This document shows, one piece after another, positions 19,987 to 43,229 of a stretch of 64,000 nt of DNA (positions are counted from its first letter, which is position 1; each line of letters opens with the position of its first letter). This stretch comes from Candidatus Omnitrophota bacterium (GTDB lineage Bacteria > Omnitrophota > Gorgyraeia > Pluralincolimonadales > Pluralincolimonadaceae): positions 14,757 to 78,756 of the forward strand of contig JBAZFB010000004.1 in NCBI GenBank assembly GCA_041653595.1, given 5' to 3'. The notes below the pieces were generated by a model, which was given only the letters and a program-made list of their open reading frames with translations, had not been told where the DNA came from and did no database searches. Made by a program: the position numbers and the translations under genes.

Positions 19987-21012
19987 ATGAAGAAAGTCAC
20001 CTTTAAAGAGATCTCCAGGATAGTCGGCGTGTCCCCGATGCACGTGTCGAGGGCCCTCGCAGGGCACCCTTACGTAAAGGAGGAGCTGCGCCGCGAGATA
20101 TCCAAGGTAGCCAAGAAGCTCAACTACAGCATCAATCCCTTCGGCCGCGGCCTGTCCAAGAATATCCAGATGAAGGCCCGGATGATATGCGTCCTGACCA
20201 AATACGGGAACTTCTTCCGGACCGAGTATTTCGTCAACCTGATAGACGCGATCAGCAGCAATTGCAGGGCGAAGGGATACGACGTGATAATGGCGAGCCT
20301 CACGGACGATGAAAGCGGAAACATAAAGAGGCTCAAGAACCTGGTCAGTTATTATAAGGCGGGCATAATAGAGGGGTTCGTCTTCATCGCGCCGGACCTC
20401 GACGCCGCGGAAGGCTTTTTCCTGCGCGCGGAAAAGGTCAATTTTGTCTGCGCCGGCAGCAGGATAGAAGCGGCTACGAAATATGTCGACGTCGATAATT
20501 TCAGGGCGGGCTCCGAGGTCGGCGGCTATCTTATCCGGCTGGGCCACAGGAGGATAGCTTTTGTGAAAGGCCTCGAGAAGAGGCGCGATAGCCGGGAGAG
20601 GCAGCAGGGTTTCTTGAATGCCCTGACGGCAAGCGGGATCGCGCCGGACGAAGGCCTATTCATTTCCGGCGATTACAGTATTCCCGGCGGGAAGAAGGCG
20701 ACAGCGGAATTGTTTTCGCGCAAGAAGAAGCCGGACGCGATATTTTATGCTAACGACCTTATGGCCTACGGCGGCCTCGAATTTTTCAAGGAAAAAAAGA
20801 TAAGGGTCCCTCGCGAGATCTCTATCGTGGGTTTTGACGACCTCGCTGCGTCGTCTCGGACCGAGCCCCCGCTTACGACCGTGAGGCAACCTTATAAGGA
20901 GATGGGAGAGGCGGTCATGGAGGCCGTATCCCACCCGGAATTCGCTTCAAGGATGATAACGGCGAAATTAATAATAAGGAAGAGCTGCGACAAGCCAAGG
21001 AGAATTGGATGA
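19987..21012 (+). CDS. LacI-family transcriptional regulator (second copy).
   Basis: HTH 'VTFKEISRIVGVSPMHVSRALAGHPYVKEELRREISKVAKKLNYSIN' followed by a PBP-like domain. 4-nt ATGA overlap with the downstream hydrolase gene. Confidence 0.9.
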   Translation: MKKVTFKEISRIVGVSPMHVSRALAGHPYVKEELRREISKVAKKLNYSINPFGRGLSKNIQMKARMICVLTKYGNFFRTEYFVNLIDAISSNCRAKGYDVIMASLTDDESGNIKRLKNLVSYYKAGIIEGFVFIAPDLDAAEGFFLRAEKVNFVCAGSRIEAATKYVDVDNFRAGSEVGGYLIRLGHRRIAFVKGLEKRRDSRERQQGFLNALTASGIAPDEGLFISGDYSIPGGKKATAELFSRKKKPDAIFYANDLMAYGGLEFFKEKKIRVPREISIVGFDDLAASSRTEPPLTTVRQPYKEMGEAVMEAVSHPEFASRMITAKLIIRKSCDKPRRIG

Positions 21013-24000
21013 GGACTACCGCGGGATACAGGATCGGTAACGACAACGAATTCATAATTGAAAATTACAACTATTCCAAGGCCTTTTCGAGTTTCCTGCC
21101 CGGCATAGCCGGCGTCGACGGCATCCCGATGTGGGTCTTTTACGTGAACAGGAACCAGGCGGTATGCAGCCTCGGCATAGAGAGCAAGGACCGCGCGATG
21201 ATGGAATTTCTGCCCGCGAATTTCGCCTACCAGCTGGTCGGGACGCAGGGCTTCAGGACCTTTATCAAGATAATTGGCAAAAACGGTTTTACGCTGTATG
21301 AGCCGTTCAGGGTATACGAGAAAGAAGAGGGGTATATCCCGTCCCAGGTGATGGCTATTACCCCTTATTCCGTGACGCTAAGGGAGGTCCACGAGAAGCT
21401 GGGCATGAGCGTCGAGGTCAGGTATTGCAACGTCGTCCAGGAGCCGTTCCCCGGCCTCATAAGGCAGGTGGAGATAAAGAATATCTCCGGGAGGGCCGTG
21501 AAGATCGAGCTCCTCGACGGGATGCCGCAGGTGATACCCTTCGGGATGGACGATTCCAGCCTGAAGAAGATGAAATACCTCGTCAAATCCTTCAGTTACG
21601 CGGAAAACCTCGGGGAAAAGATACCTTATTTCCATATCAGGACGACCCATGAGGACGGCCCTGAGGTGGCCATGGTAAAGAGAGGCCATTATTACGCGTG
21701 CGTCAGGGTGGAGGGAGGCAAGGCTGAGTTGAAACGGCCCCTTATAGATGCCTCGCAGATCTTCGGAATTAGGAAGGACATGATCCTCCCCTCGCGCTTT
21801 AACGTGAGGTCGAAATTCATTTATGATACTAAGGGCGAACTGACCAGCGGGGAGTTCTCTTCGGCCATGTGCCATGAGGATGCGGCACTCAAGCCTTCGG
21901 AGACGCTCACTTTATACTGCGTCTGCGGCACCCTGGATTCTGTCGGCGGCACGAAAGAGGTGGCGCGCGCCCTCACCGCGGATTTCGCGGAGACGCAGCT
22001 CAAGAAAAACCGGACCGTCATCGAATCGATCATGGGCTCTTCCCTGGTCATAAGCGAAGACGAGAAGTTTGACAGGTATTCCGCCCAAAATTTCCTCGAC
22101 AACGTGCTGCGCGGAGGCTTCCCCCTGACGGTAACGAAAGACAGGAGCAAAGTCTTCTATGTCTATTCCAGGAAGCACGGCGACCTGGAGAGGGATTATA
22201 ACCAGTTCTACACTTCCCCGACCCTTTATTCCCAGGGCGATTCCAATTACAGGGACGTCAACCAGAACAGGCGAAACGACACGTTCTTCAATCCCGACGT
22301 CGGGATGTCCAACATTATCAACTTCATAAACTTCATACAGATGGACGGGTTCAATCCGCAAGGCGTGGACGGAGTGACATTCATATATAAGGGAGACAAA
22401 AAACTTCTCATAAGCCTTTTCGGATCCGGCGCGGAAAAGATGGAGGAGTTTTTCAGGAAGCCTTTCGCCCCGGGCGACATCTTCAAGTTCGCCGGATCCA
22501 ATTCTATCAAGGCCGCCGTATCGAACGGGGAGATGCTCTCGAAGATACTCGAGCGCTCGGACGCCGGGCAGAATTCGCGGCATATCGACGGTTTCTGGAG
22601 CGACCACTGGTCCTATAATATGGACCTCATCGACAGTTTCCTGGCCGTCTATCCGGACAGGAGGAAGGAGCTATTCTCCGGGCGCAGGGATTTCACGTTC
22701 CACGACAGCCCTTACGTCGTCCTGCCGAGGCAGGATAAATACGTCTTGTGGGACGGAAAACCGGTCCAGTTGGGCGCGGTAAAGGTCGACGAGGAGAAGA
22801 GGAAGATGATCGCCGGCAGGAGATCGGAGAAGACGCTCGTCCGCAAAGTAAACGGCAAAGGAGATGTTTACAGGACCGACCTCATCACGAAACTCCTTAT
22901 AATCGCGGTCAATAAGATAAATTCCATCGGGCCGGACGGCTGCGGCATCGAGATGGAGACGGATAAGCCGAACTGGTGCGACGCGCTTAACGGACTTCCG
23001 GGGCTCTTCGGGTCGTCCTCGAACGAGACATTTGAACTGAAGAGGCTGATAACCATGATCTCGAAGAACCTTGGCGGCAAGGCCCTCGAGCTTCCCGAGG
23101 AAGCCGTCGAGGCGATCAGGGATTCTAAAGACGCGCTAAACGGTTATCTCGGCGGGAGACTGGACGATCTCGGCATATGGGACAAACTGACCGCGATAAA
23201 AGAAAATTTCAGGAGAAAGACGAGATGCGGGATAATCGGCAGGCTCATCCCGGTCCCGGCAGACGAAATATCCGGCTACCTTGCGCTCGCGGCAAAGAGG
23301 GTCCAGGCGGCCATAAACAAAAGTTTTGACGAGAAGACCGGACTTTATTCCGGGTATTTTATCAATGTCCCGGCCGAATACGAACAGATCACGGTCACGG
23401 ACAGCGCCGGCAGGGAGGTCCCGAAGGCCAACCACAAGGGCCTGCCGTGCATCAGGGTGATGAAATTCAACTCCCGGACGCTGCCGTTATTCCTGGAGGC
23501 GCAGGTCCACGCGCTGAAGGCGGAAGAGGACAGATCTGTCGCCGCGAGGCTGCACTACAACCTCATGAAGAGCGGCCTGGTCGACAAAAAATTGAAGATG
23601 TTCTCGGTCAATGCCTCGCTTGAAAAGGAGCCGTATGAGATAGGCAGGACCAAGACGTTCAATCCGGGCTGGCTCGAGAACCAGTCGATCTGGCTTCACA
23701 TGGAATATAAATACTTGCTCGAGTTATTGAAGGCCGGGCTTTACAAAGATTATTACGCGAATTTCAAGGACGTCCTCGTGCCGTTCCTGAGGCCAGAGGT
23801 CTACGGAAGGAGCATCTTCGAGAACTCGTCTTTCATCGCGGGCAGCGTCCATCCGGACAAGAAAGTCCACGGACAGGGGTTTTACGCGAGGCTCTCCGGC
23901 TCGACCGCAGAATTCGTCCATATGTGGCTTATAATGATGACCGGAGGAAGGCCGTTTTCGCTCGACGCAAACGGCAAACTGGTCTTCAGCCTCTCCCCGG

Positions 24001-24299
24001 TCCTTAAGGGCGGGATGTTCCTGAAAAAAGACCGCAAGGCGGAGCACTATTCTCCCGAAGGAAAATTGCAGAAAGAGACCGTCAAGAAAGGCACATTGAA
24101 ATTCATGCTGCTTGGCAGCATACCCGTGACTTATATCAATCCCCGGCGGAAGGATATATTCGGGGGCGGCAAAGGGGCTAAGTACGCGCTGACGCTCGAG
24201 GACGGCGCGGTGAAGGAATTCACCGGCAGCGTCCCGGAACCGTATTCGGCCCTTGTCAGGGAAAGAAAAATAAAAGAGATAAAGATGTATCTTGATTAA
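21009..24299 (+). CDS. Large (1096 aa) cytoplasmic glycoside hydrolase/phosphorylase-like protein of the (alpha/alpha)6-toroid type, family unassigned.
   Basis: No signal peptide. N-terminal beta-rich region followed by a helical-repeat region (…LLELLKAGLYKDYYANFKDVLVPFLRPEVYGRSIFENSSFIAGSVHPD…GQGFYARLSGSTAEFVHMWLIMM) typical of six-hairpin glycosidases (GH94/GH65/GH116-like). Confidence in the exact product is low. Confidence that this is a real CDS is high. Confidence 0.55.
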   Translation: MRTTAGYRIGNDNEFIIENYNYSKAFSSFLPGIAGVDGIPMWVFYVNRNQAVCSLGIESKDRAMMEFLPANFAYQLVGTQGFRTFIKIIGKNGFTLYEPFRVYEKEEGYIPSQVMAITPYSVTLREVHEKLGMSVEVRYCNVVQEPFPGLIRQVEIKNISGRAVKIELLDGMPQVIPFGMDDSSLKKMKYLVKSFSYAENLGEKIPYFHIRTTHEDGPEVAMVKRGHYYACVRVEGGKAELKRPLIDASQIFGIRKDMILPSRFNVRSKFIYDTKGELTSGEFSSAMCHEDAALKPSETLTLYCVCGTLDSVGGTKEVARALTADFAETQLKKNRTVIESIMGSSLVISEDEKFDRYSAQNFLDNVLRGGFPLTVTKDRSKVFYVYSRKHGDLERDYNQFYTSPTLYSQGDSNYRDVNQNRRNDTFFNPDVGMSNIINFINFIQMDGFNPQGVDGVTFIYKGDKKLLISLFGSGAEKMEEFFRKPFAPGDIFKFAGSNSIKAAVSNGEMLSKILERSDAGQNSRHIDGFWSDHWSYNMDLIDSFLAVYPDRRKELFSGRRDFTFHDSPYVVLPRQDKYVLWDGKPVQLGAVKVDEEKRKMIAGRRSEKTLVRKVNGKGDVYRTDLITKLLIIAVNKINSIGPDGCGIEMETDKPNWCDALNGLPGLFGSSSNETFELKRLITMISKNLGGKALELPEEAVEAIRDSKDALNGYLGGRLDDLGIWDKLTAIKENFRRKTRCGIIGRLIPVPADEISGYLALAAKRVQAAINKSFDEKTGLYSGYFINVPAEYEQITVTDSAGREVPKANHKGLPCIRVMKFNSRTLPLFLEAQVHALKAEEDRSVAARLHYNLMKSGLVDKKLKMFSVNASLEKEPYEIGRTKTFNPGWLENQSIWLHMEYKYLLELLKAGLYKDYYANFKDVLVPFLRPEVYGRSIFENSSFIAGSVHPDKKVHGQGFYARLSGSTAEFVHMWLIMMTGGRPFSLDANGKLVFSLSPVLKGGMFLKKDRKAEHYSPEGKLQKETVKKGTLKFMLLGSIPVTYINPRRKDIFGGGKGAKYALTLEDGAVKEFTGSVPEPYSALVRERKIKEIKMYLD

Positions 24300-27183: not shown

Positions 27184-27232
27184 TTCTGTAGTACAACTGA
27201 TTACGCAAATGAATAAAAAAGCAGGGAATAAA

Positions 27233-31784
<4,552 letters not shown>

Positions 31785-31792
<8 letters not shown>

Positions 31793-33224
31793 TACAAAGA
31801 GATTCCTGAAAATAAAACGGGAGGCCTCATCTTACCGCGAGGTATGCGAGCGCGTAAAGGATTACAGAGAGGTGGCTGTCCTGCGCCCGGAGGAGAAGTC
31901 GAAAGACCAGAGCTCTCGCTGCATGGACTGCGGAGTGCCGTTCTGCCATTGGGGCTGCCCGATCGGGAATTATATACCGGAGTGGAACGACCTGATGTTT
32001 CGCGGCCAATGGAAAAAGGCAATAGACGTCCTGGGCGCGACGAATAACCTGCCCGAGATAACCGGCAGGATCTGCCCGGCACCGTGCGAATACGCGTGCG
32101 TCCTCGGGATAAACGATGACCCTGTCACTATACGGGAAGACGAGCTCGATATTATAGAATATGCTTTCAAAGAGGGAGGGCTCAAGCCCAACCCGCCGAA
32201 AAAACGCACCGGCAAGAAAGTCGCCGTCATAGGTTCCGGACCGTCAGGCCTTGCCTGCGCCGACCAGTTGAATAAAGCCGGGCATAAAGTCACGGTATTC
32301 GAGAAGGACGACAAGATAGGCGGAATACTGCGCTACGGCATACCCGATTTCAAGCTCGACAAATCCGTCCTCGACAGGCGCATAAAGATATGGAAGAAAG
32401 AGGGGATAGAATTCAAGACATCCGCTGATGTAGGCGCCGATTATAAAACGTCCAAACTGAAGAAGGATTTCGACGTGATCGTGCTTGCCGGCGGGAGCCG
32501 CTTCCCGCGCGACCTCAAGATACCCGGCCGCGAGCTGGGCGGAATACATTTCGCGATGGATTTCCTCGTCCAGTCGAATAATAGGGTTTCCGGAATCAAG
32601 GTACCTTCCGGAAAGCTCATCGACGCGAAGGGTAAGAAGGTTGTCGTTATCGGCGGCGGTGACACAGGCGCTGACTGCGTAGGCACCGCGCACAGGCAGG
32701 GCGCGTCATGCATCGTCCAGATAGAGCTCTTGTCCCAGCCTCCGGAATGCCGCACAAAGGATTTTCCGTGGCCGAAATATCCGATGCTTTTGAAGACAAC
32801 TACGAGTCATCAGGAGGGCGGCGAACGCTATTGGTCGGTCTCGACCAAGAAGTTTGAGGGCGCCGGCGGAAAGGTCAAGAAACTTTCCTGCGTAAAGGTC
32901 GAGATAGGCCGTGACGATAAAGGCTGCATGATGATAAAAGACGTCCCGGGAAGCGGATTTGAGATAGAAGCGGACCTTGTCGTCCTCGCGCTCGGGTTTA
33001 TGCACCCCGAGAAAGGGCTCATCTCACAGCTCGGCGTCGAGCTCGACCCGCGCGGGAACGTAAAGACCGACGAGCATTATCTTACCTCGGTAAAAGATGT
33101 CTTCGCCGCAGGCGATATGAGGAGGGGCCAGTCGCTCATCGTCTGGGCCATCTCCGAAGGCCGCCGCGCCGCCCACTCCATCGACAAATACCTCATGGGC
33201 TCCACCCGCCTGCCGGCCATTTGA
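31785..33224 (+). CDS. gltD: Glutamate synthase small subunit (NADPH-dependent, GltD-like).
   Basis: Two Cys clusters (CMDCGVPFCH…CP, CPAPCEYAC). FAD/NAD Rossmann motifs (VAVIGSGPSGLACA, VVVIGGGDTGADC). 8-nt overlap with gltB. Confidence 0.9.
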
Positions 33225-33230
33225 GCCGTC

Positions 33231-33259
33231 TTGACAATCCCCGCATTTTGCCGTAAAAT
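33231..33259 (+). promoter_or_regulatory. Sigma-70-like promoter: TTGACA, 17 nt spacer, TAAAAT, for the hyf-like operon.
   Basis: TTGACA at 33231-33236, TAAAAT at 33254-33259, in the 117 bp gap after gltD. Confidence 0.45.
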
Positions 33260-33341
33260 ACCACCTACAACAGTCAAGTAATACTGCAGCGAAGAACCGA
33301 AGCTCCTGCCAGCATTACCTCTAACTAACAAAAAAACGTAA

Positions 33342-35168
33342 ATGGAATATCTCAAAATAGGTCTTACATTACTATTTGACCCGCTGTCTTTGTTTTTCCT
33401 GGCGGTCATAGCGCTCGTCTCGGTGCCGTCGGCGGTCTACGCGATAGGCTACTTAAAAGGGGACCATTCACGCGGCGGGACGCTCCTCGCGTGGTCGCTT
33501 ATGGCCGCGTTCGTCCTGTCTATGGCGCTCGTAGTCACGGCCGGCAATGCCTTTCTTTTCCTCGTCGCATGGGAGCTGATGTCGCTCCTTTCGTATTTCC
33601 TCGTCGTCTTCGACCACAAGCATGAAAAATCAGTGAAGGCAGGCACTATCTACATAGTCATGACCCACATCGGGACGGCATTTATTACCGCGGCCTTCCT
33701 TATTATTTTCAAGTACGCCGGGTCGTTCGAATTTTCCGCGTTCAAACAGGCCTGCCTCTCGATGCCCGGTAACATAAAAGATATCGTTTTTATCTTCTTA
33801 TTGATAGGGTTCGGTACGAAGGCGGGGATCGTGCCGCTTCACATCTGGCTTCCTTACGCGCATCCCCAGGCGCCCAGCCACATCTCAAGCATAATGTCCG
33901 GTGTTATGATAAAGACGGCCATCTACGGGATGGTCAGGTTCATCATCTTTATCCTCGGCGTCAATTCGTTGTGGTGGGGCAACCTCGTGCTGGTCGTCGC
34001 GATAGTTTCGTGCCTCGTTGGCGTCATTTATGCGCTTATGGAACATGACCTGAAGAAGCTCCTGGCCTATCACAGCGTCGAGAATATCGGGATCATCCTT
34101 CTCGGCGTCGGCGCCTCGATGGTTTTTATTAAAATGGGAAATCCGGTCCTTGCCGTATTCGCGCTCTGCGCCGGCCTGTATCATTTGGTTAACCACGCTG
34201 TATTTAAAGGCCTTTTATTTTTGGGCGCGGGCGCAGTCTATAAAGCTACCGGGACGCGCAATATGGAAGACCTCGGCGGGCTGATAAAGCTGATGCCGTG
34301 GACCGCGGCGACATTCCTTGTCGGCGCGATGGCGATATCGGCGCTGCCTCCGTTGAGCGGGTTCGTGAGCGAGTGGCTTACCCTCCAGGCGTTCTTTTTT
34401 GGCGCGCTCGCTTCGGCGGGAAGCTATAAGATATTCTTAAGCGTATGCGCGGCGATGCTCGCCCTGACAGGCGGCCTTGCCGCCTCGTGTTTCGTGAAGG
34501 CCTTCGGCATTACGTTCCTGGCGATGCCGAGGAGCGACCGCGCGAGGGAGGCAAAAGAGGTATCGCTTTCGATGAAATCAGCCCTTGTAGCCATGTCCAT
34601 ATTTACGGTCATCCTTGGGCTTGCGGCTTCGGTGATGATCAAGATATTGGTCGTCGTCTCGGGCTGCGCGACAGGCATCGAAACCTCCGGCATGAGCTTT
34701 ACCCTGAATAATTTCACGCTCGCGCCGCAGCCTGGAACATATCTTTCGGTCCCGCTCATAACCCTTGCGCTTATATTCGCAGCCGGCGCCGGCTTGGCCC
34801 TCGTCCGTACCGGACGCAAGCGCGTTTGCGAGGGAAAGACATGGGGCTGCGGCTATTACGACCTGGACTCAAGGACAGAATATACCGCGACCGCCTTTTC
34901 AAAGCCGTTCCGGATAGCGTTCAGTTTCTTTTTACGGCCGTACAGCAAGACAGAGAAGATAAGGGAATCGTTCTATCACGTAAAATCATTCAAGTACGAG
35001 GTCTTTACCACCCCTGTCTTCAGGCGTTATATATACGAGCCTGCGCTTAACCTTATCGTCAAGACGGCGCACGCGATGAAGCGTATACAGCCGGGCAGCA
35101 TCCACGTCTATATCGCCTATATTTTTGTCACGATACTGGCGCTTGTTATTTTTATGGGGAGGCCCTGA
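33342..35168 (+). CDS. HyfB/HycC-like proton-translocating membrane subunit (NuoL family) of a group-4 hydrogenase-related complex.
   Basis: Aligns along its length with E. coli HyfB (e.g. GTKAGIVPLHIWLPYAHPQAPSHISSIMSGVMIKTAIYG vs [39 protein letters not shown]). Confidence 0.85.
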   Translation: MEYLKIGLTLLFDPLSLFFLAVIALVSVPSAVYAIGYLKGDHSRGGTLLAWSLMAAFVLSMALVVTAGNAFLFLVAWELMSLLSYFLVVFDHKHEKSVKAGTIYIVMTHIGTAFITAAFLIIFKYAGSFEFSAFKQACLSMPGNIKDIVFIFLLIGFGTKAGIVPLHIWLPYAHPQAPSHISSIMSGVMIKTAIYGMVRFIIFILGVNSLWWGNLVLVVAIVSCLVGVIYALMEHDLKKLLAYHSVENIGIILLGVGASMVFIKMGNPVLAVFALCAGLYHLVNHAVFKGLLFLGAGAVYKATGTRNMEDLGGLIKLMPWTAATFLVGAMAISALPPLSGFVSEWLTLQAFFFGALASAGSYKIFLSVCAAMLALTGGLAASCFVKAFGITFLAMPRSDRAREAKEVSLSMKSALVAMSIFTVILGLAASVMIKILVVVSGCATGIETSGMSFTLNNFTLAPQPGTYLSVPLITLALIFAAGAGLALVRTGRKRVCEGKTWGCGYYDLDSRTEYTATAFSKPFRIAFSFFLRPYSKTEKIRESFYHVKSFKYEVFTTPVFRRYIYEPALNLIVKTAHAMKRIQPGSIHVYIAYIFVTILALVIFMGRP

Positions 35169-35169
35169 C

Positions 35170-36045
35170 ATGAAAACCGCGCTTATCTTCATCCAGGTCG
35201 CGATGCTCATCGTTTTATCGCCTCTCGTTAGCGGCATAATAAGGAAGATAAAGAATAATATCAGGATGCGCAAAGGCGCCGGCATATTCCAGCCGTATTA
35301 TAACCTTGCTAAGCTTTTCGCGAAGGAAGAGGTCGTATCGGATACTACGTCGTGGATATTCAGGGCCGCGCCGTTTGTCGTCCTTGCCTCATCCGTGTGC
35401 GCGTTGTCGCTCGTGCCTGTATTCTCGCCGGCGCTTTCGTTCTCCAATATGGGCGATTTCCTCTCCTTAATATTTATTTTGGCGCTCGGCAGGTTCTTTA
35501 TCGCCCTCGCCGGACTCGACGCGGGGAGCGCGTTCGGCGGAATGGGCTCATCGCGGGAGATGTTCATATCGACATTCGTGGAGCCCGTGGCCTTGCTGTC
35601 GATCTTCGCGGTCTCGCTCAACGCGGGTTCGACGAACCTGGCGTCGGTCAGCGCGCCTGCCGTTCTGCGGTTGTCATCCATCATCGCGGCGCTCTCGCTT
35701 TTTATAGTGACTATCGCCGAGACCTCGCGCATCCCGGTCGATAACCGGGAGACCCACCTGGAATTGACGATGATACACGAGGCGATGGTCCTGGAATATT
35801 CAGGCAGGCCGCTCGCCCTTATAGAATTGGCCTCGCACATAAAGCAGATATTGTTCTTTTCCCTGATAGCCGCGGTCGTCATCCCGTGGGGCGATTTCGC
35901 CCTCAAGATGGCGGCGATCATCATAGCGGTGAGCCTGATAGAGGTATCGGTGGCTAAGATGAGGCTGTTCAGGGCCGTGGATTTCCTGAGCTTCGCGTTC
36001 GTCCTCTCGATAATGGCGGTCATCGTCTCCGCGGCGGGGTACTGA
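35170..36045 (+). CDS. HyfC/HycD-like membrane subunit (NuoH family).
   Basis: Multi-TM protein. The N-terminus MKTALIFIQVAMLIVLSPLVSGIIRKIKNNIRMRKGAGIFQPYYNLAKLF matches the NuoH/HycD pattern. ATG 1 nt after the upstream stop. Confidence 0.8.
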   Translation: MKTALIFIQVAMLIVLSPLVSGIIRKIKNNIRMRKGAGIFQPYYNLAKLFAKEEVVSDTTSWIFRAAPFVVLASSVCALSLVPVFSPALSFSNMGDFLSLIFILALGRFFIALAGLDAGSAFGGMGSSREMFISTFVEPVALLSIFAVSLNAGSTNLASVSAPAVLRLSSIIAALSLFIVTIAETSRIPVDNRETHLELTMIHEAMVLEYSGRPLALIELASHIKQILFFSLIAAVVIPWGDFALKMAAIIIAVSLIEVSVAKMRLFRAVDFLSFAFVLSIMAVIVSAAGY

Positions 36046-36046
36046 T

Positions 36047-36667
36047 ATGTTCATGAATATATCCTTATTCGCGATACTCATGATGGCCTTCGCCATGGTC
36101 GCGGCGAAACGGGTGACCGCCCTGATAAACGGTTTCCGCGCCCAGTCGCTATTCCTGTTCCTTTTTATGTTAGTGCTGGCGCGCAGGGCCGATTCGACGG
36201 AATTATATATAGTCGCCGCGCTCCTCTTCCTGATAAAAGTCATATTGATACCGCGCATGCTGCACAGGGTGGTAAAAAGGATAAAAGTGAGCGAAGATCT
36301 CGGGCTTTCCGCGAACCCGACCGTCTCGATCTTCGCAGCCATCGTGCTGGCTTACCTGGCGTACGCGTTCACCGGGATGATAGCCGGTGTTCCGGCGTTC
36401 TTCGTCTCTATCTCGATAACGCTCATCGGCTTATTTATCATGATATTCAGGATGAAGGCGCTGGCCCAGATAGCCGGCCTGCTCATAATGGAGAACGGGA
36501 TGTTCCTCGCCGCAGCCAGTGTCTCCGGCGGGATGCCGTTCATAGTCGAAATAGCGATATTCTTCGATGTCTTCCTCGCGGTGATAATACTCGGTATTTT
36601 CGTCTATAAGATAAACAGCCTGTTCACGCATATAGACGTGGACAAGCTCACTGAGCTGAAAGGTTGA
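36047..36667 (+). CDS. HyfE-like small hydrophobic membrane subunit.
   Basis: 206 aa, 6-7 TM helices. Position and size match HyfE of hydrogenase-4 type operons. Sequence-level identification is weak. Confidence 0.55.
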   Translation: MFMNISLFAILMMAFAMVAAKRVTALINGFRAQSLFLFLFMLVLARRADSTELYIVAALLFLIKVILIPRMLHRVVKRIKVSEDLGLSANPTVSIFAAIVLAYLAYAFTGMIAGVPAFFVSISITLIGLFIMIFRMKALAQIAGLLIMENGMFLAAASVSGGMPFIVEIAIFFDVFLAVIILGIFVYKINSLFTHIDVDKLTELKG

Positions 36668-36670
36668 CGA

Positions 36671-38071
36671 ATGAATAGGATAAAGGCATTGGGCGTCATC
36701 AACGCGGTATTGCATCTCGCGATATCGGCCGCTTCTGTATTCCTTGCCTCGTATGTGCTAAAGGAAGGTCCGGTCAGCGGTTTTGATTTCTTCTATATCG
36801 ACGCGCTGAGCGCTTTCTTTATCCTTACGATATCCGTAGTTAACCTTGCTGCGGCGCTTTATTCGATAGGCTATATGGAGAAGGATGTCGAGGCGGGGAC
36901 GATAAAGGAGAGGAAGGCGGGCGCCTATTACGGGCTCTTTAATCTCTTCGCGTTCACTATGTATTTCGTGACGGTCGTGAATAACCTCGGCATGCTCTGG
37001 GTCGCGATCGAGATGACGACCCTCGTTTCCGCGTTCCTGGTGGGTTTCTACAACAACAAGAGATCCATCGAGGCGGCCTGGAAATATATAATAATATGCT
37101 CGGTAGGCATAACGCTTGCCCTTTTGGGGACGATATTATTTTATTATACCGCCTCGCGCGACGGGGGGATATCGAGCCTGAACTGGACCGACATGATGGA
37201 CGCGGCGGGAAAGCTCGACCCGAAGGTGTTGAAGGTCGCGTTCCTTTTCATCCTTGTCGGATACGGGACCAAGGCCGGCCTCGCGCCCATGCATACCTGG
37301 CTCCCTGACGCGCACAGCCAGGCGCCGGCGCCGATAAGCGCGCTCCTCTCCGGCGTGCTCCTTAAGACGGCTATCTACGCGATAATCAGGTTCACTTCCA
37401 TAATAAATATCTGCATCGGCACGTCATATTCGGACGGGCTGCTTATCTTCTTCGGGCTCCTTTCACTCGGCGTATCCGCGGCGTTCGTGATCGTCCAAAA
37501 GGACATCAAGCGCCTGTTCGCGTACAGCAGCGTCGAGCATATCGGCGTCATAACTTTCGGCCTGGGCATGGGCGGCGCGCTCGGGCTTTTCGGCGCGCTC
37601 TTCCACGTATTCAATCACGCGGTGACGAAATCACTCATGTTCTTCAGCGCCGGCAATGTGGTGAAAAAATATAAGACGAGCGAGATGGGCGCGATAAGGG
37701 GAGTGCTAAACGCCATGCCTTTTACCGGCATCATGCTGATAATAGGCGCGTTCGCCCTGACGGGTTCCCCGCCGTTCTCGGTATTTTTCAGCGAAGTGAT
37801 GATACTCATCTCGGGTTTCGGGCAGGGGCTTTATCTCCAGTCGGCGCTCTTCCTGCTCTTTTTGGCGATAATATTCGGCGCGGTCATACACCATATAAGT
37901 AAAATAGCCTTCGGAAAGAAGCCGCAGGATATGCCGGTCTCCGGCGAACCCTTGAGCGGGAAGATGGCGTTCGTACTCCTGCTGTTATTCATATGCGCGC
38001 TCGGGTTCAAGCTGCCCGCGCTTTTCAGCGGGCTTATTACTTCGGCGATAGAGATAATAAGAGGGGCATGA
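36671..38071 (+). CDS. HyfF/HyfD-like antiporter-type membrane subunit (NuoM/NuoN family).
   Basis: 'GTKAGLAPMHTWLPDAHSQAPAPISALLSGVLLKTAIYAIIRF' is the conserved NuoL/M/N motif. 466 aa polytopic protein. Confidence 0.8.
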   Translation: MNRIKALGVINAVLHLAISAASVFLASYVLKEGPVSGFDFFYIDALSAFFILTISVVNLAAALYSIGYMEKDVEAGTIKERKAGAYYGLFNLFAFTMYFVTVVNNLGMLWVAIEMTTLVSAFLVGFYNNKRSIEAAWKYIIICSVGITLALLGTILFYYTASRDGGISSLNWTDMMDAAGKLDPKVLKVAFLFILVGYGTKAGLAPMHTWLPDAHSQAPAPISALLSGVLLKTAIYAIIRFTSIINICIGTSYSDGLLIFFGLLSLGVSAAFVIVQKDIKRLFAYSSVEHIGVITFGLGMGGALGLFGALFHVFNHAVTKSLMFFSAGNVVKKYKTSEMGAIRGVLNAMPFTGIMLIIGAFALTGSPPFSVFFSEVMILISGFGQGLYLQSALFLLFLAIIFGAVIHHISKIAFGKKPQDMPVSGEPLSGKMAFVLLLLFICALGFKLPALFSGLITSAIEIIRGA

Positions 38072-39597
38072 TGGGCTTCAGGGATGAATTATATATAGAC
38101 GTAAAACCGGAAGAGTTCAGGAGCAAGTGCCTGGAACTCCACAAAAAACTTTCTTCTCCTGTGATGATGTATTTCGCGGTCGACGAGAGGAAAGAGAAGG
38201 GATCATTTGCGGTCTATTGCGCCTTCCTCGACGCGGCGGATAAGAGGTGGGCATTTGTCAGGATGTACCTGCCCCAGGACGGACCCGCATTCGAGTCGGT
38301 CTCAAAAGACATATTTTCCGCGTCCCTCTTCGAAAGGGAGATAAGGGAGATGTTCGGGATCGAGCCGCGGGGGAATCCCGACCTGAGAAGGCTCAATCTC
38401 CACGAGGAGGTCTGGCCCGAGGGATTTTATCCCCTGCGCAAGGATTTTACCCCTCCGGAGCGCGCGCGGAAAGCCGAGGGTTCGTACAAATTCAGGAAAG
38501 TCGAAGGAGAAGGCATCTTCGAGGTGCCGGTCGGCCCGGTCCATGCCGGGATAATCGGCCCGGGCCATTTCAGGTTCAGCGCGGCCGGTGAACCGATAAT
38601 AAATCTTGAGGCGAGGCTCGGGTTTACCCATCGCGGGGTCGAGAAGATCTTTGAAGGTATGCCTTCGGCCGGGTCGGCTGAGGCTGTTTGTTTTTCCGAG
38701 CGCGTCTCAGGCGATTCCGCGTTCGCTTACAGCACGGCATATTGCTCGGCAGTAGAGAAGATATACGGTATACGCGTCCCGGAACGGGCGCAGTACATAA
38801 GGGCGATATTCCTCGAGCTTGAGAGGATGTATAACCACGCGAACGATATCGGGGGAATGGCCCTCGACGTGGGTTTCAGTTTCCCGAACGCGTTCGCCTC
38901 GGTAGTAAAAGAAAAGATCCTTGCCCTCAACGAGAAGATGTCCGGCAGCAGGTACCTCAAAGGCGTAAATACCGTAGGCGGAGTGAACAGGGACCTGAGC
39001 GGGTCCGAGAGGATGGCCCTGGCGGATTCGCTTGCCGGGATATCTAAGGACCTCGAAGAGCTCAAGGCCATGCTCAAATCAAGCATATCCTTCATGGACA
39101 GGGTCGATAAGACAGGCATATTAAAGAAGAAGACCGCCGCAGACCTCGGCATAGTCGGCCTCGCGGCGCGCGCGTCGGGCATCCCGATGGACCTGAGGAA
39201 TACTTTTCCCGGCGTTTACGCCGCCGCGAATTTCAACCTCATAAAAGAGGAAGAGGGCGATGTCCTCGCCCGCCTTAACCTGCGCCTGCGGGAAGCCTCC
39301 GAATCGGCGCGCCTCATAAAAGAATTTGTCAGGATCATGAACCAGGGCGACACATCGCCCGCGAAGAAGATCGAACCGGCGGCGGGCTGCGGGATCGGCC
39401 ATGCCGAAGGCTGGCGGGGCCCGGTCCTCTTCTGGATAAAGACAGGCGCCTCAGGCCGGATAGAGAGATGCAAGATAGTCGACCCGTCTTTCCATAACTG
39501 GCAGGGGTTGTGTTTCGCGGTCCTGGGGAATATCATCCCCGATTTCCCTCTGTGCAATAAGAGCTTCGACCTATCGTATCCGGGGAATGACCTATGA
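38068..39597 (+). CDS. Fused NuoC-NuoD-like 'large subunit' (HycE/HyfG homolog) lacking the [NiFe]-binding cysteines, i.e. Ehr-type.
   Basis: N-terminal NuoC-like region, then NuoD/hydrogenase large-subunit motifs (GPVHAGIIGPGHFRF…ARLGFTHRGVEKIFEG). The L1 motif position reads ERVSGDSAFAYSTAY (expected ER-x-C-G-x-C-x-x-x-H). The C-terminal L2 reads VDPSFHNWQG (expected DPC-x-x-C). ATGA overlap with the upstream gene. The ORF-track start 37993 was rejected because it lies inside hyfF. Confidence 0.85.
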   Translation: MMGFRDELYIDVKPEEFRSKCLELHKKLSSPVMMYFAVDERKEKGSFAVYCAFLDAADKRWAFVRMYLPQDGPAFESVSKDIFSASLFEREIREMFGIEPRGNPDLRRLNLHEEVWPEGFYPLRKDFTPPERARKAEGSYKFRKVEGEGIFEVPVGPVHAGIIGPGHFRFSAAGEPIINLEARLGFTHRGVEKIFEGMPSAGSAEAVCFSERVSGDSAFAYSTAYCSAVEKIYGIRVPERAQYIRAIFLELERMYNHANDIGGMALDVGFSFPNAFASVVKEKILALNEKMSGSRYLKGVNTVGGVNRDLSGSERMALADSLAGISKDLEELKAMLKSSISFMDRVDKTGILKKKTAADLGIVGLAARASGIPMDLRNTFPGVYAAANFNLIKEEEGDVLARLNLRLREASESARLIKEFVRIMNQGDTSPAKKIEPAAGCGIGHAEGWRGPVLFWIKTGASGRIERCKIVDPSFHNWQGLCFAVLGNIIPDFPLCNKSFDLSYPGNDL

Positions 39598-40100
39598 AAA
39601 ATATATTTAAGAACAGAATGATCAAGGGGATGGTCACCATCCCGGTAGGGAAAGACGCCGATGAGGCCGATAAGCTCGGCGTAGAATTAAAAGCGCGGAT
39701 ACAAAAGAGGTTCGGCAGGTCTTTCCATATACGGGAGGTCGATACCGGTTCATGCAACGGCTGCGAATCCGAGATAATCGCGACCACGAACCCCATTTAT
39801 GATATCCAGCGGTTCGGTATCGACTTTGTCGCGTCCCCGCGCCATGCCGACGCGCTGCTCGTGACCGGACCGGTATCGAAGAATATGGCGCTGGCGCTGC
39901 GCAGGACCTACGATGCGATGGCCGAGCCGAAATTCGTCATAACCCTGGGCGATTGCGCCCTCGACGGCGGCGCGTTCAAGGATTCATATTACGTCGCCGG
40001 CGGGGTAAAAGAGATACTTCCCGTAGACCTGCATATCCCCGGCTGCCCGCCGTCGCCTCTTGCCATAATAAAATCACTCTTGGACTTTCTAAGCGCATAG
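39594..40100 (+). CDS. NuoB-like small subunit (HycG/HyfI homolog) retaining the [4Fe-4S] ligands.
   Basis: Cys ligands at GSCNGCE, GDCA and IPGCPPSP. ATGA overlap with the large-subunit gene. Confidence 0.85.
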   Translation: MKNIFKNRMIKGMVTIPVGKDADEADKLGVELKARIQKRFGRSFHIREVDTGSCNGCESEIIATTNPIYDIQRFGIDFVASPRHADALLVTGPVSKNMALALRRTYDAMAEPKFVITLGDCALDGGAFKDSYYVAGGVKEILPVDLHIPGCPPSPLAIIKSLLDFLSA

Positions 40101-40118
40101 AGTATAATCGTTGGTGAT

Positions 40119-40733
40119 ATGGAAGACCGCCATTCGGACGATACTCTAAAAGTTATCAATCGCCGGCACAGCGTCAGGCAATTCCTGGAGAGGCCGGTCG
40201 ACGATTCCCTTATTAAGGCGGTGCTCGACGCCGCGAATAAGGCGCCGTCGGCGCATAACCAGCAGTCGTGGCGTTTCATCGTCGTGCGCGGCGAGAAAAA
40301 GCAGCAGCTGGCCCAGCTCGTTGTGGATAAGTCCCCGGGATTCCCGAAGCCGTCCTCTTCCATACTCCGTATGGCGGCGAGGAGCATAAGCAACGCTCCG
40401 GTCGTCATCGCGGTCATGAACACGGGCACGCTGATAAGCCGCGGGACAGAACTGTTCAAGATAGAAAAAGACAAGGCGAAGGATTTTTTCCGGACGATGG
40501 AGATACAAAGCTCTTCCGCGGCGGTCGAGAACCTGCTTATCGCCGCGACCTCCCTCGGCCTCGGCAGCGTATGGCTCGGGATATTGTTCTTGATAAAAGA
40601 TGAGATCCTGTCGTTCTTCGGTGAGGCAAAAGGGGAATTTATGGCGGTCATCCCAGTCGGTTATCCGGCCAAAGAACAGGAAGGCCCCAAGAAAAAATCG
40701 CTGGAATATGTCGTGAGGTATATTGAAAAATGA
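40119..40733 (+). CDS. Nitroreductase-family flavoprotein.
   Basis: 'INRRHSVRQF…LDAANKAPSAHNQQSWRFIVV' is the nitroreductase fold signature. 18 nt after the NuoB-like gene. Confidence 0.75.
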   Translation: MEDRHSDDTLKVINRRHSVRQFLERPVDDSLIKAVLDAANKAPSAHNQQSWRFIVVRGEKKQQLAQLVVDKSPGFPKPSSSILRMAARSISNAPVVIAVMNTGTLISRGTELFKIEKDKAKDFFRTMEIQSSSAAVENLLIAATSLGLGSVWLGILFLIKDEILSFFGEAKGEFMAVIPVGYPAKEQEGPKKKSLEYVVRYIEK

Positions 40734-41152
40734 CAAAAGAAGATATTATCAAGTTCATCAACGCGAATCTCGTCTGCCATCTCGCCACAACCGAAGGGGA
40801 CCAGCCCCACGTCAGGGGCATGATGGCGTACCGGGCGGACGAGAAAGGGATAATATTCCACACCGGTAATTTGAAAGACCTGTTCAAGCAGGTCTGCGAC
40901 AACCCCCTGGTCGAGGCCTGTTTCTTCGATCCCAATACCAACACGCAGGTCAGGGTGAAGGGCAAGGCCGTCATAATATACGACGATAACCTGAAGAGGG
41001 AGATCGTCGCGGCAAGGCCGTTTTTGAAACCCTGGGTCGAGGAGCTCGGCCTCGATCTGATAGTGACCTTCAGGATAACGGATTGCCGCGCCTGCGTCTG
41101 GACGTTCGGGACGAATTTTGCGCCCAAGGAATACGTCAAGATCTCCGACTGA
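40730..41152 (+). CDS. Pyridoxamine 5'-phosphate oxidase-like FMN-binding split-barrel protein.
   Basis: The pattern 'INANLVCHLATTEGDQPHVRGMMAYRADEKGIIFHTGNLKDLFKQV…EACFFD' is typical of PNPOx-like/GSP26-like proteins. 4-nt overlap with the nitroreductase gene. Confidence 0.65.
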   Translation: MTKEDIIKFINANLVCHLATTEGDQPHVRGMMAYRADEKGIIFHTGNLKDLFKQVCDNPLVEACFFDPNTNTQVRVKGKAVIIYDDNLKREIVAARPFLKPWVEELGLDLIVTFRITDCRACVWTFGTNFAPKEYVKISD

Positions 41153-41157
41153 TACTT

Positions 41158-42117
41158 ATGCTGACGATCGGAAAGCTCAACCTGAAGTCCAGCCTCATCC
41201 TCGCCCCTATGGCGGGCATAACCGACCTGCCGTACCGCATGCTCAACCGCAAGTTCGGCGCCGAGCTCGCATTTACCGAGATGGTCAACGCGCGCTCGTT
41301 AAGCTACAGCAATGTCAAGGCGCTCGAGATGCTCGGATCGGCGAAAGGCGACAGGCCGCTCGGCATCCAGCTCGTCGGGAACGAGCCCGAATATCTTAAC
41401 CGCGCGGTAGAAAAACTCCATAAATACAGGTTCGATATCCTCGATTTCAACGCAGCCTGCCCGGAGAGAAAGGTCACCGCAAAGGGAGAGGGCGCCGCCC
41501 TTCTTAAAGACCTGAAAAAATTAAAACGCCTCCTTAAGATACTCGTCAGGGAATCGAAATGGCCGGTCACGGTCAAGCTTCGCTCCGGTTGGGACAAGAA
41601 TAGCGTAAACGCCGCGGATGCGGCTTTGCATGCCGAGGACGCGGGCGTGGCCGCAATATTCATCCACGGCAGGACGCGCAACCAGCTCTACGGCGGCCAG
41701 GCCGATTACGGCATAATAAGGAAGGTAAAAGGCGCCGTCAGGGTCCCGGTCATCGGAAGCGGCGACGTCTTGTCAGGGCCGCTCGCGAAGAAGATGTTCG
41801 ATGAGACCGGCTGCGACGCGATACTCCTTGCGCGCGGCGCGCTGGGGAACCCATGGCTGTTCAAAGAGGTAGAGGCTTATCTTAAGGATGGCTCTGTGCC
41901 GGAAAGGCCGTCAAAAGAGGTCATAATAAAGACGATGGTTAGTCATCTCAATGCCTCGGTCAAATGCTTCGGCGCGAAGAGGAGCATCCCGTTCTTCCGG
42001 AAATTCTTCTGCTGGTATACCAAGGGGCTCGATAACGTCCGCCCGCTGCGCGTAAAAGCATGCGCCGCTGAGACAAAGAAAGAAATGCTTGATATAATAA
42101 ACGAAATTAACATATAA
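41158..42117 (+). CDS. dus: tRNA-dihydrouridine synthase.
   Basis: 'LILAPMAGITDLPYRMLNRKFGAELAFTEMVNARSL…GIQLVGNEP…NAACP' are Dus family motifs. The ORF-track start 41083 overlaps the upstream gene. ATG at 41158 chosen. Confidence 0.85.
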   Translation: MLTIGKLNLKSSLILAPMAGITDLPYRMLNRKFGAELAFTEMVNARSLSYSNVKALEMLGSAKGDRPLGIQLVGNEPEYLNRAVEKLHKYRFDILDFNAACPERKVTAKGEGAALLKDLKKLKRLLKILVRESKWPVTVKLRSGWDKNSVNAADAALHAEDAGVAAIFIHGRTRNQLYGGQADYGIIRKVKGAVRVPVIGSGDVLSGPLAKKMFDETGCDAILLARGALGNPWLFKEVEAYLKDGSVPERPSKEVIIKTMVSHLNASVKCFGAKRSIPFFRKFFCWYTKGLDNVRPLRVKACAAETKKEMLDIINEINI

Positions 42118-42137
42118 TCTAATAAGGAAGGGCTAAT

Positions 42138-43229
42138 ATGAGACCAAAAAGGATAGCGATACTTACCGGCGGCGGGGACTGCCCGGGCCTGAACGCGGTC
42201 ATACGCGCCGTGGCTAAAAAAGCCATGGGCGAGGGGCGCGAGGTCGTGGGGATCAAGGACGGTTACAAGGGCCTCGTTGAAAACAATTTCAAGAAACTCG
42301 ATAATTCCGATGTCTCGGGTATCCTCACCCTGGGAGGCACGATACTCGGCACGTCCAATATCGCCAACCCTTACCGTTACGCCATAGAAGGCAAGGGCTG
42401 CAAGGTCACCTTCAAGGATTACCACAAGAGAGCCATAAATAATTTTAAGAACTCGAAAGCCGACGCGCTGGTGGCTATCGGCGGGGACGGGACGCTAAGC
42501 ATAGCCTATCGGCTTTATGAAGACGGCATCCCGGTAATCGGTGTCCCTAAGACGATAGATAACGATATCCTCGGCACCGACATCACGTTCGGTTTCGATA
42601 CGGCCGTATGGGTGGCGACCGAAGGCATAGACAGGATACACACGACCGCGCAATCGCATCATCGCGCGATGATAATAGAGGTCATGGGGCGGACCGCGGG
42701 CTGGATAGCCCTGCACTCCGGGGTTGCCGGCGGCGGCGATATCATACTCATCCCCGAGATCCCCTACGATATCAATGTGGTCGTCAAAAAGATAAAAGAT
42801 AGGCACCGCAGGGGAAAGAGGTTCAGCATAATAGTGATATCCGAAGGCGCGAAGCCGAAGGGCGGGGATGTTGTAGTAAAGAGGGTGGTAAAGGAGAGTT
42901 TCGAGTCGGTCAGGCTCGGCGGCGTAAGCTTTGTTCTCGGCAGCCAGATCGAGAAATTAGCGTGCGGCATCGAGTCGCGCGCTGTAGTGATGGGCCATCT
43001 ACAAAGGGGCGGTTCGCCCACGCCTTTCGACCGCGTATTAGCCACACAGCTCGGCACAAGGGCGGTGGATTTCATAAACGAAGGCGCGTTCGGCCATATG
43101 GTCGCGGTCAGGAACAATGAGTTTGTGAAAGTCTCGCTCAGTGAAGTAGCCGGGGGCAAAAGGCTTGTCCCGAGGAACCATCCGCTCGTCGCGTCAGCGC
43201 GCGCGGTCGGGACCTGCTTCGGGGATTAA
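42138..43229 (+). CDS. pfk: 6-phosphofructokinase, ATP-dependent type judging by the GGDGT motif.
   Basis: 'RIAILTGGGDCPGLNAVIRAV' and 'AIGGDGTLS' are PFK signatures. Confidence 0.85.
   Translation: MRPKRIAILTGGGDCPGLNAVIRAVAKKAMGEGREVVGIKDGYKGLVENNFKKLDNSDVSGILTLGGTILGTSNIANPYRYAIEGKGCKVTFKDYHKRAINNFKNSKADALVAIGGDGTLSIAYRLYEDGIPVIGVPKTIDNDILGTDITFGFDTAVWVATEGIDRIHTTAQSHHRAMIIEVMGRTAGWIALHSGVAGGGDIILIPEIPYDINVVVKKIKDRHRRGKRFSIIVISEGAKPKGGDVVVKRVVKESFESVRLGGVSFVLGSQIEKLACGIESRAVVMGHLQRGGSPTPFDRVLATQLGTRAVDFINEGAFGHMVAVRNNEFVKVSLSEVAGGKRLVPRNHPLVASARAVGTCFGD

Follow-up and report, generated by a model that had tools for sequence, protein, structure and literature searches.

The energy-converting hydrogenase-related (Ehr) complex of Geobacter sulfurreducens (EhrA-1, B, C, D, L and S; GSU0739-0745) has been detected by proteomics, and its subunits are more abundant on formate (PMC7894505). 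Ehr complexes are also known from Riflemargulisbacteria, Saganbacteria and Melainabacteria, where NuoCD-, NuoB-, HyfB-, HyfF-, NuoH- and HyfE-like subunits occur without Ni-Fe ligands, a complex with formate dehydrogenase (FDH) has been proposed and a NuoB-NuoI fusion has already been noted (Matheus Carnevali et al. 2019, PMC6349859, Supplementary Note 4 for the fusion); further reports concern the Candidate Phyla Radiation (CPR), Elusimicrobia and Nitrospira. All of these papers call the function unknown (PMC6349859, PMC7894505, PMC10284858), as an earlier note on the DNA analysed here, made from the sequence alone, had rightly said. Here, we describe a 64,000-nucleotide (nt) stretch of a Candidatus Omnitrophota contig (JBAZFB010000004.1), referred to as the window, in which positions 33231-40100 are an Ehr operon, and therefore a known kind of system. 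Gene families were assigned by Pfam and NCBIfam profile searches, and the genes of the operon are as follows:

33342-40100, + strand: the tightly packed six-gene ehr block, with HyfB/NuoL-, NuoH-, HyfE-, HyfF/NuoN-, NuoC-NuoD- and NuoB-like products
33342-35168, + strand: ehrA, 608 amino acids, a HyfB/HycC/NuoL-like antiporter-type membrane subunit
35170-36045, + strand: ehrB, 291 amino acids from the ATG at 35170 (the reading frame is open from 35125), a NuoH/HycD-like membrane subunit
36047-36667, + strand: ehrC, 206 amino acids, a HyfE-like membrane subunit with a NuoK-like C-terminal half
36671-38071, + strand: ehrD, 466 amino acids, a HyfF/NuoN/MbhH-like antiporter-type subunit
38068-39597, + strand: ehrL, 509 amino acids, a fused NuoC-NuoD/HycE-like large subunit without Ni-Fe ligands
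39594-40100, + strand: ehrS, 168 amino acids, a short NuoB/HycG-like small subunit with four cysteines for one predicted [4Fe-4S] cluster

The likeness to the Geobacter ehrABCDLS cluster is close: the gene order is the same (NuoL-, NuoH-, HyfE- and NuoN-like, large, small), the Ni-Fe cysteines are likewise absent, the four cluster cysteines of EhrS are conserved, and the motifs GD, DPSFHNWQ and DFPLCNKSF.LSY.G.DL are shared. The two systems differ in that EhrL is only 37-38% identical and falls in a separate clade, and in that the Geobacter EhrS (~248 amino acids) carries an N-terminal HycF/NuoI-like domain, with one or two extra clusters, that the 168-residue protein of the window is without. 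In a scan of one genome per species, practically every one of 80 loci had the same six genes, with their order unchanged; a block that recurs in this way is an operon and not a chance pattern. The Ni-Fe ligands are absent from all 80. The loci divide into 33 with 57-84% EhrL identity to the window, from Omnitrophota, Margulisiibacteriota, Firestonebacteria and some Elusimicrobia (the window's clade, marked by a short EhrS), and 47 with 36-44% identity, from Geobacter, other Desulfobacterota, Elusimicrobia and others (the distant clade). Three Margulisiibacteriota loci (L023, L027 and L030; 58-61% identity) belong to the former, which, in contrast to the margulisbacterial system with its NuoB-NuoI fusion in the RA1A genome and its proposed FDH partner (PMC6349859), has no NuoI-like part and, at the window, no fdh gene nearby.

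A wider search with EhrL, against 1.84 billion cluster representatives (50% identity), gave 934 hits (E <= 1e-30). Of the 150 best-scoring, most lack the Ni-Fe ligands, and about 20, which are 38-42% identical to the EhrL of the window and end in ...NKSFELCYSCxDR, keep all four cysteines. In a neighbour-joining tree of such representatives, which is crude, has branches without support values and leaves out a curated HydDB reference set, the four-cysteine sequences form one separate clade, and the window lies with the other short-EhrS sequences in a clade with Ser-Ser-Ser-Gly or Ala-Ser-Ser-Gly at these positions; the phylogenetic placement proposed in the earlier note thus sets the NuoCD-like subunit among ligand-less Ehr sequences. 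Together, the locus combines a hydrogenase/NuoD-like large subunit without CxxC ligands, the NuoB-like cysteines, the gene order and the tree placement, i.e. all of the features that define an Ehr. EhrL itself is 100% identical to a protein (P0001) of a Candidatus Omnitrophota metagenome-assembled genome; in the assembly index, the exact window protein was found solely on contigs of 1.7-2.1 kb, which hold no gene context.

EhrL matches the Complex1_30kDa (PF00329) and Complex1_49kDa (PF00346, 1.1e-35) families and, weakly, NiFeSe_Hases (PF00374). Its closest solved relative is Escherichia coli HycE (7Z0S_E, E = 1.9e-65), ahead of MbhL, Nqo4 and MbsL. When the two are aligned, RVCGICGFAH of HycE corresponds to RVSGDSAFAY of EhrL, and DPCYSC to the C-terminal DLSYPG; both this and the family alignment show that all four Ni-Fe cysteines are replaced (S214, S217, S503 and G506), and the first of these positions varies across the family between Ser, Ala and Cys. 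The protein ends in ...SYPGNDL, nine residues past S503, with no maturation peptide. The motif DPSFHNWQ was considered as a remnant of the C-terminal Ni-Fe motif and rejected, as alignments with HycE, MbhL and Nqo4 all place it on the PSFxNLQ motif of NuoD; what is left of the Ni-Fe motif is DLSYPG, at the C-terminus. Nor are the complex I quinone ligands retained: His38 and Tyr87 of Thermus thermophilus Nqo4 align with Ile and Gly, such that EhrL has no canonical quinone site. Nonetheless, in a set of 81 sequences whose overall identity falls as low as 36%, about 75 positions reach at least 95% conservation, including those in the motifs GPVHAGIIxPGHFRF, GD, DPSFxNW and DFPxxNKSxxLSYxGxDL, which indicates a selected, remodelled pocket rather than decay. 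The conservation of this putative pocket argues for real chemistry.

EhrS matches Oxidored_q6 (8.3e-31), and its Cys54, Cys57, Cys121 and Cys151 are invariant in 75-77 of 77 sequences; the quartet is predicted to form a single [4Fe-4S] site, equivalent to the proximal cluster. The protein is 168-179 amino acids long in the window's clade, as against about 245-250 in the clade of Geobacter and Elusimicrobia, where the N-terminal part matches HycF (7Z0S_F, 1.6e-7) and MbhN and holds one or two CxxCxxC...CP motifs. In the alignment, the short form shows a clean deletion of ~83 residues, by which the Cys-rich core is gone and an N-terminal stub is kept. In the EhrS of the window's clade the HycF/NuoI-like segment, a fused part of the protein in the Geobacter clade, has been lost, leaving one predicted Fe-S cluster. 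Moreover, no separate NuoI/HycF/HyfH-like or HycB/HyfA-like open reading frame (ORF) was found in the window, and no frame of it holds a ferredoxin-type Cys motif, except for the Fer4_20 domain of GltD. The short EhrS represents a modest variant of a known family, and is the small addition made by this analysis.

As in complex I, the Mrp antiporters and the membrane-bound hydrogenases, conserved Glu, Lys and His residues of the ion channels are kept by the four membrane subunits. EhrA (Proton_antipo_M, 1.1e-53; top NCBIfam model hydrogenase 4 subunit B, at 644 bits a little short of the 667-bit cut-off) has E. coli HycC as its closest solved relative (7Z0S_C, 1e-74), and its Glu78, Lys160, Lys191, His285, Lys289 and Glu344 are invariant or nearly so in 49 homologues. 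EhrD (HyfF model, 517 bits against 610) is closest to MbhH (6CFW_H, 1.6e-40) and also near MbsH; Glu114, Lys201 and Lys320 are invariant in 69-70 of 70 homologues, and position 375 is occupied by Glu in 57 of them and by Lys in 12. The conserved Glu, Lys and His residues of both proteins align with channel residues of MbhH and HycC. EhrB (NADHdh/NuoH, PF00146, 4.4e-39), whose ATG at 35170 is preceded by the Shine-Dalgarno-like sequence GGGGAGG, retains many acidic residues in at least 95% of sequences. EhrC (HyfE model, 92.5 bits, 3.3e-26, against a cut-off of 136, and a weak match to Oxidored_q2) conserves Glu149 and Glu168; a sequence search with it found no solved relative. In both EhrB and EhrC, many of the acidic residues that are kept are buried. 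These features point to an intact ion-translocating machine, which would be driven by a single Fe-S cluster. Two Omnitrophota loci (L021, 15898-20137; L032, 322-4678) have three further Proton_antipo_M-type genes a few kb from ehr, which may belong to an Mrp system or to a second complex.

The comparison may be extended to the characterized members of the wider family. With the formate hydrogenlyase (FHL) and hydrogenase 4 of E. coli (Hyc/Hyf; 7Z0S) the complex shares the NuoC-NuoD fusion and, as in Hyf, the HyfE- and HyfF-like subunits, but it lacks the Ni-Fe ligands, HycF/HyfH, HycB/HyfA, FdhF and the C-terminal maturation peptide. The group 4a motifs RxCGxCxxxH (L1) and DPCxxCxxR (L2) are represented by RVSGDSAFAY and DLSYPGNDL, and none of the subunits reaches the NCBIfam equivalog cut-offs for HyfB, HyfE or HyfF. 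The membrane-bound hydrogenase Mbh and the membrane-bound sulfane reductase Mbs are hydrogenase-derived, ion-translocating and ferredoxin-dependent, and Mbs works without a Ni-Fe site. EhrD is closest to the MbhH and MbsH subunits of these Pyrococcus furiosus complexes (6CFW and, for Mbx/Mbs, 6U8Y), although the latter are built from 13-14 subunits, an Mrp module and a NuoI-like protein among them, as opposed to six genes in the window, and MbsL matches EhrL at 97 bits, compared with 225 bits for HycE. Finally, complex I and cyanobacterial NDH-1 share the NuoB, C, D, H, K-like and L/M/N modules with their conserved channel residues; unlike these, neither the operon nor the window encodes NuoEFG, NuoI, NuoA, NuoJ or NdhS, and the Nqo4 residues His38 and Tyr87 are replaced as described. 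The account given in the earlier note of a + strand operon with NuoL-, NuoH-, HyfE-, NuoM/N-, NuoCD- and NuoB-like products, with a catalytic subunit that has lost its Ni-Fe ligands (an Ehr-type relative of Hyf and FHL) and no separate ferredoxin-like subunit gene, is thus borne out by strong Pfam and NCBIfam matches and by the HycE alignment. The six-subunit architecture has been described before and matches that of Geobacter ehrABCDLS and of the Riflemargulisbacteria Ehr (PMC7894505, PMC6349859).

Two further features lie between gltD and ehrA:

33231-33259, + strand: sigma-70-like promoter of ehr, TTGACA-17-TAAAAT, 11/12 match
33260-33341, + strand: 5' leader of ehrA, with two blocks, CAGTCAAGTAATACTGCAGCGA and CTCCTGCCAGCATTACCTCTAACTA, that are identical in relatives and could pair as a hairpin with a variable loop

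The promoter is the best promoter-like site in the 14 kb scanned. Its -35 and -10 boxes are conserved, and the ~80-nt leader is nearly identical, in the window and in two relatives, L002 and L004 (leader counterparts at 5190-5275 and 165-250, respectively), despite different upstream genes. Since promoter and leader accompany ehr whatever the gene upstream, they count in favour of a self-contained operon whose promoter is independent of gltBD; gltB-gltD is a separate transcription unit, and in this the earlier note, which placed the operon 117 nt past gltBD behind a promoter of its own, was correct. Both leader blocks are 100% identical in relatives that share merely 75-90% protein identity. 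The leader hairpin shows no covariation and folds no more stably than shuffled sequences do (z-score -0.46), and the leader matches no Rfam family; it may be a candidate regulatory element, its role being unproven. The closest relative, L001 (5238-5275), has lost the ehr promoter together with most of the leader, ~33 nt being left between gltD and ehrA, and the ehr operon may there be read through from gltBD.

The genes that flank the operon are the following:

27209-33224, + strand: gltB-gltD, NADPH glutamate synthase, the upstream neighbour, with a 117-nt gap from gltD to ehrA
40119-40733, + strand: nitroreductase-family gene (PF00881, 5.3e-30), with an 18-nt gap after ehrS
40730-41152, + strand: PNPOx-like gene (PF01243, 8.4e-11), with a 4-nt overlap with the nitroreductase gene, to which it is translationally coupled
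41158-42117, + strand: dusB, tRNA dihydrouridine synthase (TIGR00737, 319 bits against a cut-off of 293), with a 5-nt gap
42138-43229, + strand: pfk, with a 20-nt gap after dusB

Both glutamate synthase assignments are above the equivalog or subfamily cut-offs (gltB, 1839 bits against 1047; gltD, TIGR01317, 669 against 448). From 33231 to 43229 the genes form an unbroken + strand run, in which the gaps inside the operon, from ehrA to ehrS, are 1, 1, 3, -4 and -4 nt, and the terminator scan found no terminator-like site between ehrS and dusB. Promoter-like sites at 40081-40108 and 42089-42118 (10 and 11 of 12 positions), just 5' of the nitroreductase gene and of pfk, fall within the 3' ends of ehrS and dusB, respectively.

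The conservation of these neighbours was assessed in informative loci, i.e. those with at least 1 kb downstream of ehrS for the nitroreductase gene, or at least 1.5 kb upstream of ehrA for gltD. A nitroreductase gene follows ehrS in 2/24 such loci of the window's clade and in none of 40 in the distant clade; gltD precedes ehrA in 2/18 and 0/24, respectively. In both cases, the positives are L001 and L002, the closest relatives (83-84% EhrL identity), and in L002 a 2.4-kb insert of small AT-rich hypothetical ORFs (2838-5274), which looks like a small genomic islet, separates gltD from ehrA. A nitroreductase fragment also follows ehrS at the contig end of L004 (75% identity). Contigs at 76% and 70% identity have other genes upstream (rubrerythrin and radical SAM, or FeoAB) and downstream (a cold-shock protein, or an antitoxin), and three more (62-64% identity) differ again, such that flavoprotein genes lie beside ehr in 0/5 of these extra contigs. 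The Pfam assignments of 20 immediate ehr neighbours are mixed, a TonB receptor, pyruvate kinase, a citrate transporter, Fic, MatE, CstA, GreA and Cpn10 being among them. In the reverse direction, no Ehr subunit was hit in any of 80 metagenome loci that hold an orthologue of the nitroreductase (61-100% identity), 53 of which have at least 1 kb upstream. The PNPOx-like gene stands beside the nitroreductase gene solely in L001, L002, L085 and L086, and in the reverse search adjoins it only at 82% and 100% identity.

The spacing in the window adds little to this. Same-strand gaps have a median of 15 nt and are 20 nt or less in 27/46 gene pairs, the window being a compact, almost wholly co-directional stretch of unrelated housekeeping genes; because short gaps are the norm, the 18-nt spacing behind ehrS carries no functional information here. 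Hence, the earlier note was right that gaps of 18 nt or less run on into the nitroreductase, PNPOx-like and dus genes, but the functional linkage that it read into them does not follow, and the synteny of gltBD, ehr and the nitroreductase/PNPOx pair, which it had proposed to look for in relatives, is not conserved. On this comparative evidence, gltBD, the nitroreductase and PNPOx-like genes, dusB and pfk appear to be chance neighbours of unrelated function, adjacent to ehr only in the closest relatives.

No conserved neighbour of ehr was found in the short-EhrS clade; several recurrent ones are in the minority and the remainder are heterogeneous. The commonest gene directly after ehrS in this clade encodes a small DMT_6/DUF486 membrane protein (L014, L018, L029, L031, L034 and L166). 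Redox-stress genes are recurrent but minority neighbours: an Rrf2 regulator and a hybrid-cluster protein (Hcp; Prismane) are encoded beside ehr, downstream of ehrS, in four loci (L005, 3039-4706; L006, 774-1229; L165, 662-2738; and L022), and rubrerythrin immediately upstream in two (L084, 3284-3898; L166, 2418-2996). In L032 (12029-14271), from Candidatus Omnitrophica CG1_02_44_16, an NfnA/SudB-like gene begins 6 nt past ehrS and is overlapped by an NfnB/SudA-like gene of the GltD family; this is the only sampled locus with a ferredoxin-linked flavoenzyme directly behind Ehr. Upstream of ehrA in L063, L069, L071, L073, L076, L077 and L079 is a trio of genes for a DAO + BFD [2Fe-2S] oxidoreductase, a Pyr_redox_2 protein and a DUF1667 protein, often split from ehr by an opposite-strand gene; in these Elusimicrobia the trio may reflect shared genome ancestry. 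The gltD-like matches upstream of ehr in eight Elusimicrobia loci were rejected, since Pfam identifies them with this trio, which shares only the FAD/NAD fold with GltD. Elsewhere, an Omnitrophota-like contig (L083, 12745-14304) carries a NifU_N-domain gene into which an intein bearing a LAGLIDADG endonuclease domain is inserted; in the window, a 1096-residue ORF without a Pfam match (21009-24299) lies upstream of a GH35 beta-galactosidase gene, and an Rfam scan of its whole length found one tRNA and nothing else.

Taking these observations together, we consider it probable that the locus is a self-contained Omnitrophota Ehr operon, with its own promoter and leader and incidental neighbours, that works with a ferredoxin-type donor. 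In such a mechanism, the EhrS cluster would be reduced directly by a soluble carrier of low potential, with reduced ferredoxin as the most plausible one, and without the relay normally given by the HycF/NuoI-like domain, which is deleted in the window's clade. The electron would then pass to an acceptor at the remodelled interface of EhrL, EhrS and EhrB, which might be quinone-like or a sulfur compound, as opposed to protons, and the ensuing conformational and electrostatic change would drive the translocation of H+ or Na+ through EhrB-C-D-A; the complex might work in reverse, too. Several points weigh against this proposal. The window contains no ferredoxin gene, and the sequence names neither donor nor acceptor; with Ile and Gly in place of the Nqo4 quinone ligands, any quinone site must be non-canonical; and, with the NuoI-like relay gone, the access of a soluble carrier to the EhrS cluster is unproven. 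The placement of EhrL depends on a tree of the crude kind noted above. Additionally, L001, L002 and L004 all retain the ehrS-nitroreductase junction, which leaves some room for a functional tie specific to this lineage, and the 18-nt gap at this junction, with no terminator-like site, makes co-transcription likely in this lineage.

An alternative would be a redox-independent device, i.e. an Mrp-like cation/proton antiporter or a module for pH or ion homeostasis, whose peripheral arm, cluster included, would have only a structural or regulatory role. This would account for the fact that neither a donor nor an acceptor site can be named, with the Ni-Fe and quinone ligands absent and the relay clusters deleted, and the antiporter-like subunits are indeed nearest to Mrp, MbhH and HycC proteins. 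However, invariant cluster cysteines and an EhrL pocket conserved across phyla are hard to square with a structural relic, and, to our knowledge, the characterized relatives (complex I, Mbh, Mbs and FHL) are all redox-driven; we regard this alternative as unlikely.

Electrons might otherwise be derived from formate, through a formate dehydrogenase with NuoE/F-like subunits encoded elsewhere. The FDH-Ehr complex proposed for Riflemargulisbacteria and Saganbacteria (PMC6349859) is a precedent, as is the response of the Geobacter subunits to formate (PMC7894505), and the Margulisiibacteriota loci L023, L027 and L030 share the clade of the window. Against this, no fdh, nuoE or nuoF gene is present in the window or beside the sampled short-clade loci, and the published proposal is based on genome co-occurrence only, such that a formate link is, in our judgement, decidedly unlikely here.

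The loss of the NuoI-like segment could also be given a more general meaning. Ehr with a short EhrS might be a minimal one-cluster module in which the deletion exposed a docking socket for interchangeable, lineage-specific soluble partners, in which case the variable neighbours would not all be accidental: the part could be played by NfnAB in L032, by an Hcp or rubrerythrin system elsewhere and, in the genus of the window, by GltD or the nitroreductase/PNPOx pair. We mention this as a speculation that is very unlikely to be correct. The specific form of partnership put forward in the earlier note, in which a soluble FMN module (the nitroreductase, the PNPOx-like protein and/or Dus) docks onto EhrS/EhrL in place of the ferredoxin-like subunits and the complex is coupled to glutamate synthase, is so improbable that it can be dropped. 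In its favour, the genes from ehrS to dusB are spaced by 18, -4 and 5 nt and no terminator-like site lies among them, and it would suit an EhrS without any relay cluster; the ehrS-nitroreductase junction of L001, L002 and L004 and the gltD-ehrA adjacency of L001 speak for it as well. Yet, the association is confined to relatives with at least 75% EhrL identity and is already absent from the contigs at 76% and 70%. It is missing from 22/24 downstream and 16/18 upstream informative loci of the same clade, from all of those in the distant clade (0/40 and 0/24) and from all 80 loci with a nitroreductase orthologue. The insert in L002, the independent ehr promoter, the promoter-like site before the nitroreductase gene and the short median gap all tell in the same direction; moreover, Dus modifies tRNA, and pfk follows at the same spacing. 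This instance does not reveal the partner of Ehr.

Lastly, the complex is almost certainly not still a hydrogenase with its metal site held by non-cysteine ligands, because, for all the weak PF00374 match and the close kinship (38-42% identity) with the four-cysteine clade, the ligand positions are Ser, Ser, Ser and Gly, with the first Ser, Ala or Cys across the family, the protein has no C-terminal extension that an endopeptidase could process, and the window holds no hyp genes.

With 934 cluster representatives, Ehr complexes are widespread, and they are the least understood branch of the complex I/energy-converting hydrogenase family. A survey of Omnitrophota genomes has scored respiratory complex I by PF00346 (PMC10066038); as EhrL matches this family at 1.1e-35, Ehr operons could have been counted there as complex I, and, more generally, surveys that score complex I by PF00346, or hydrogenases by large-subunit homology, may miscount Ehr operons in Omnitrophota. 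The Omnitrophota-type Ehr, as a self-sufficient six-gene unit with one predicted Fe-S cluster, narrows the range of testable mechanisms for the family, and would be its smallest candidate for structural work.

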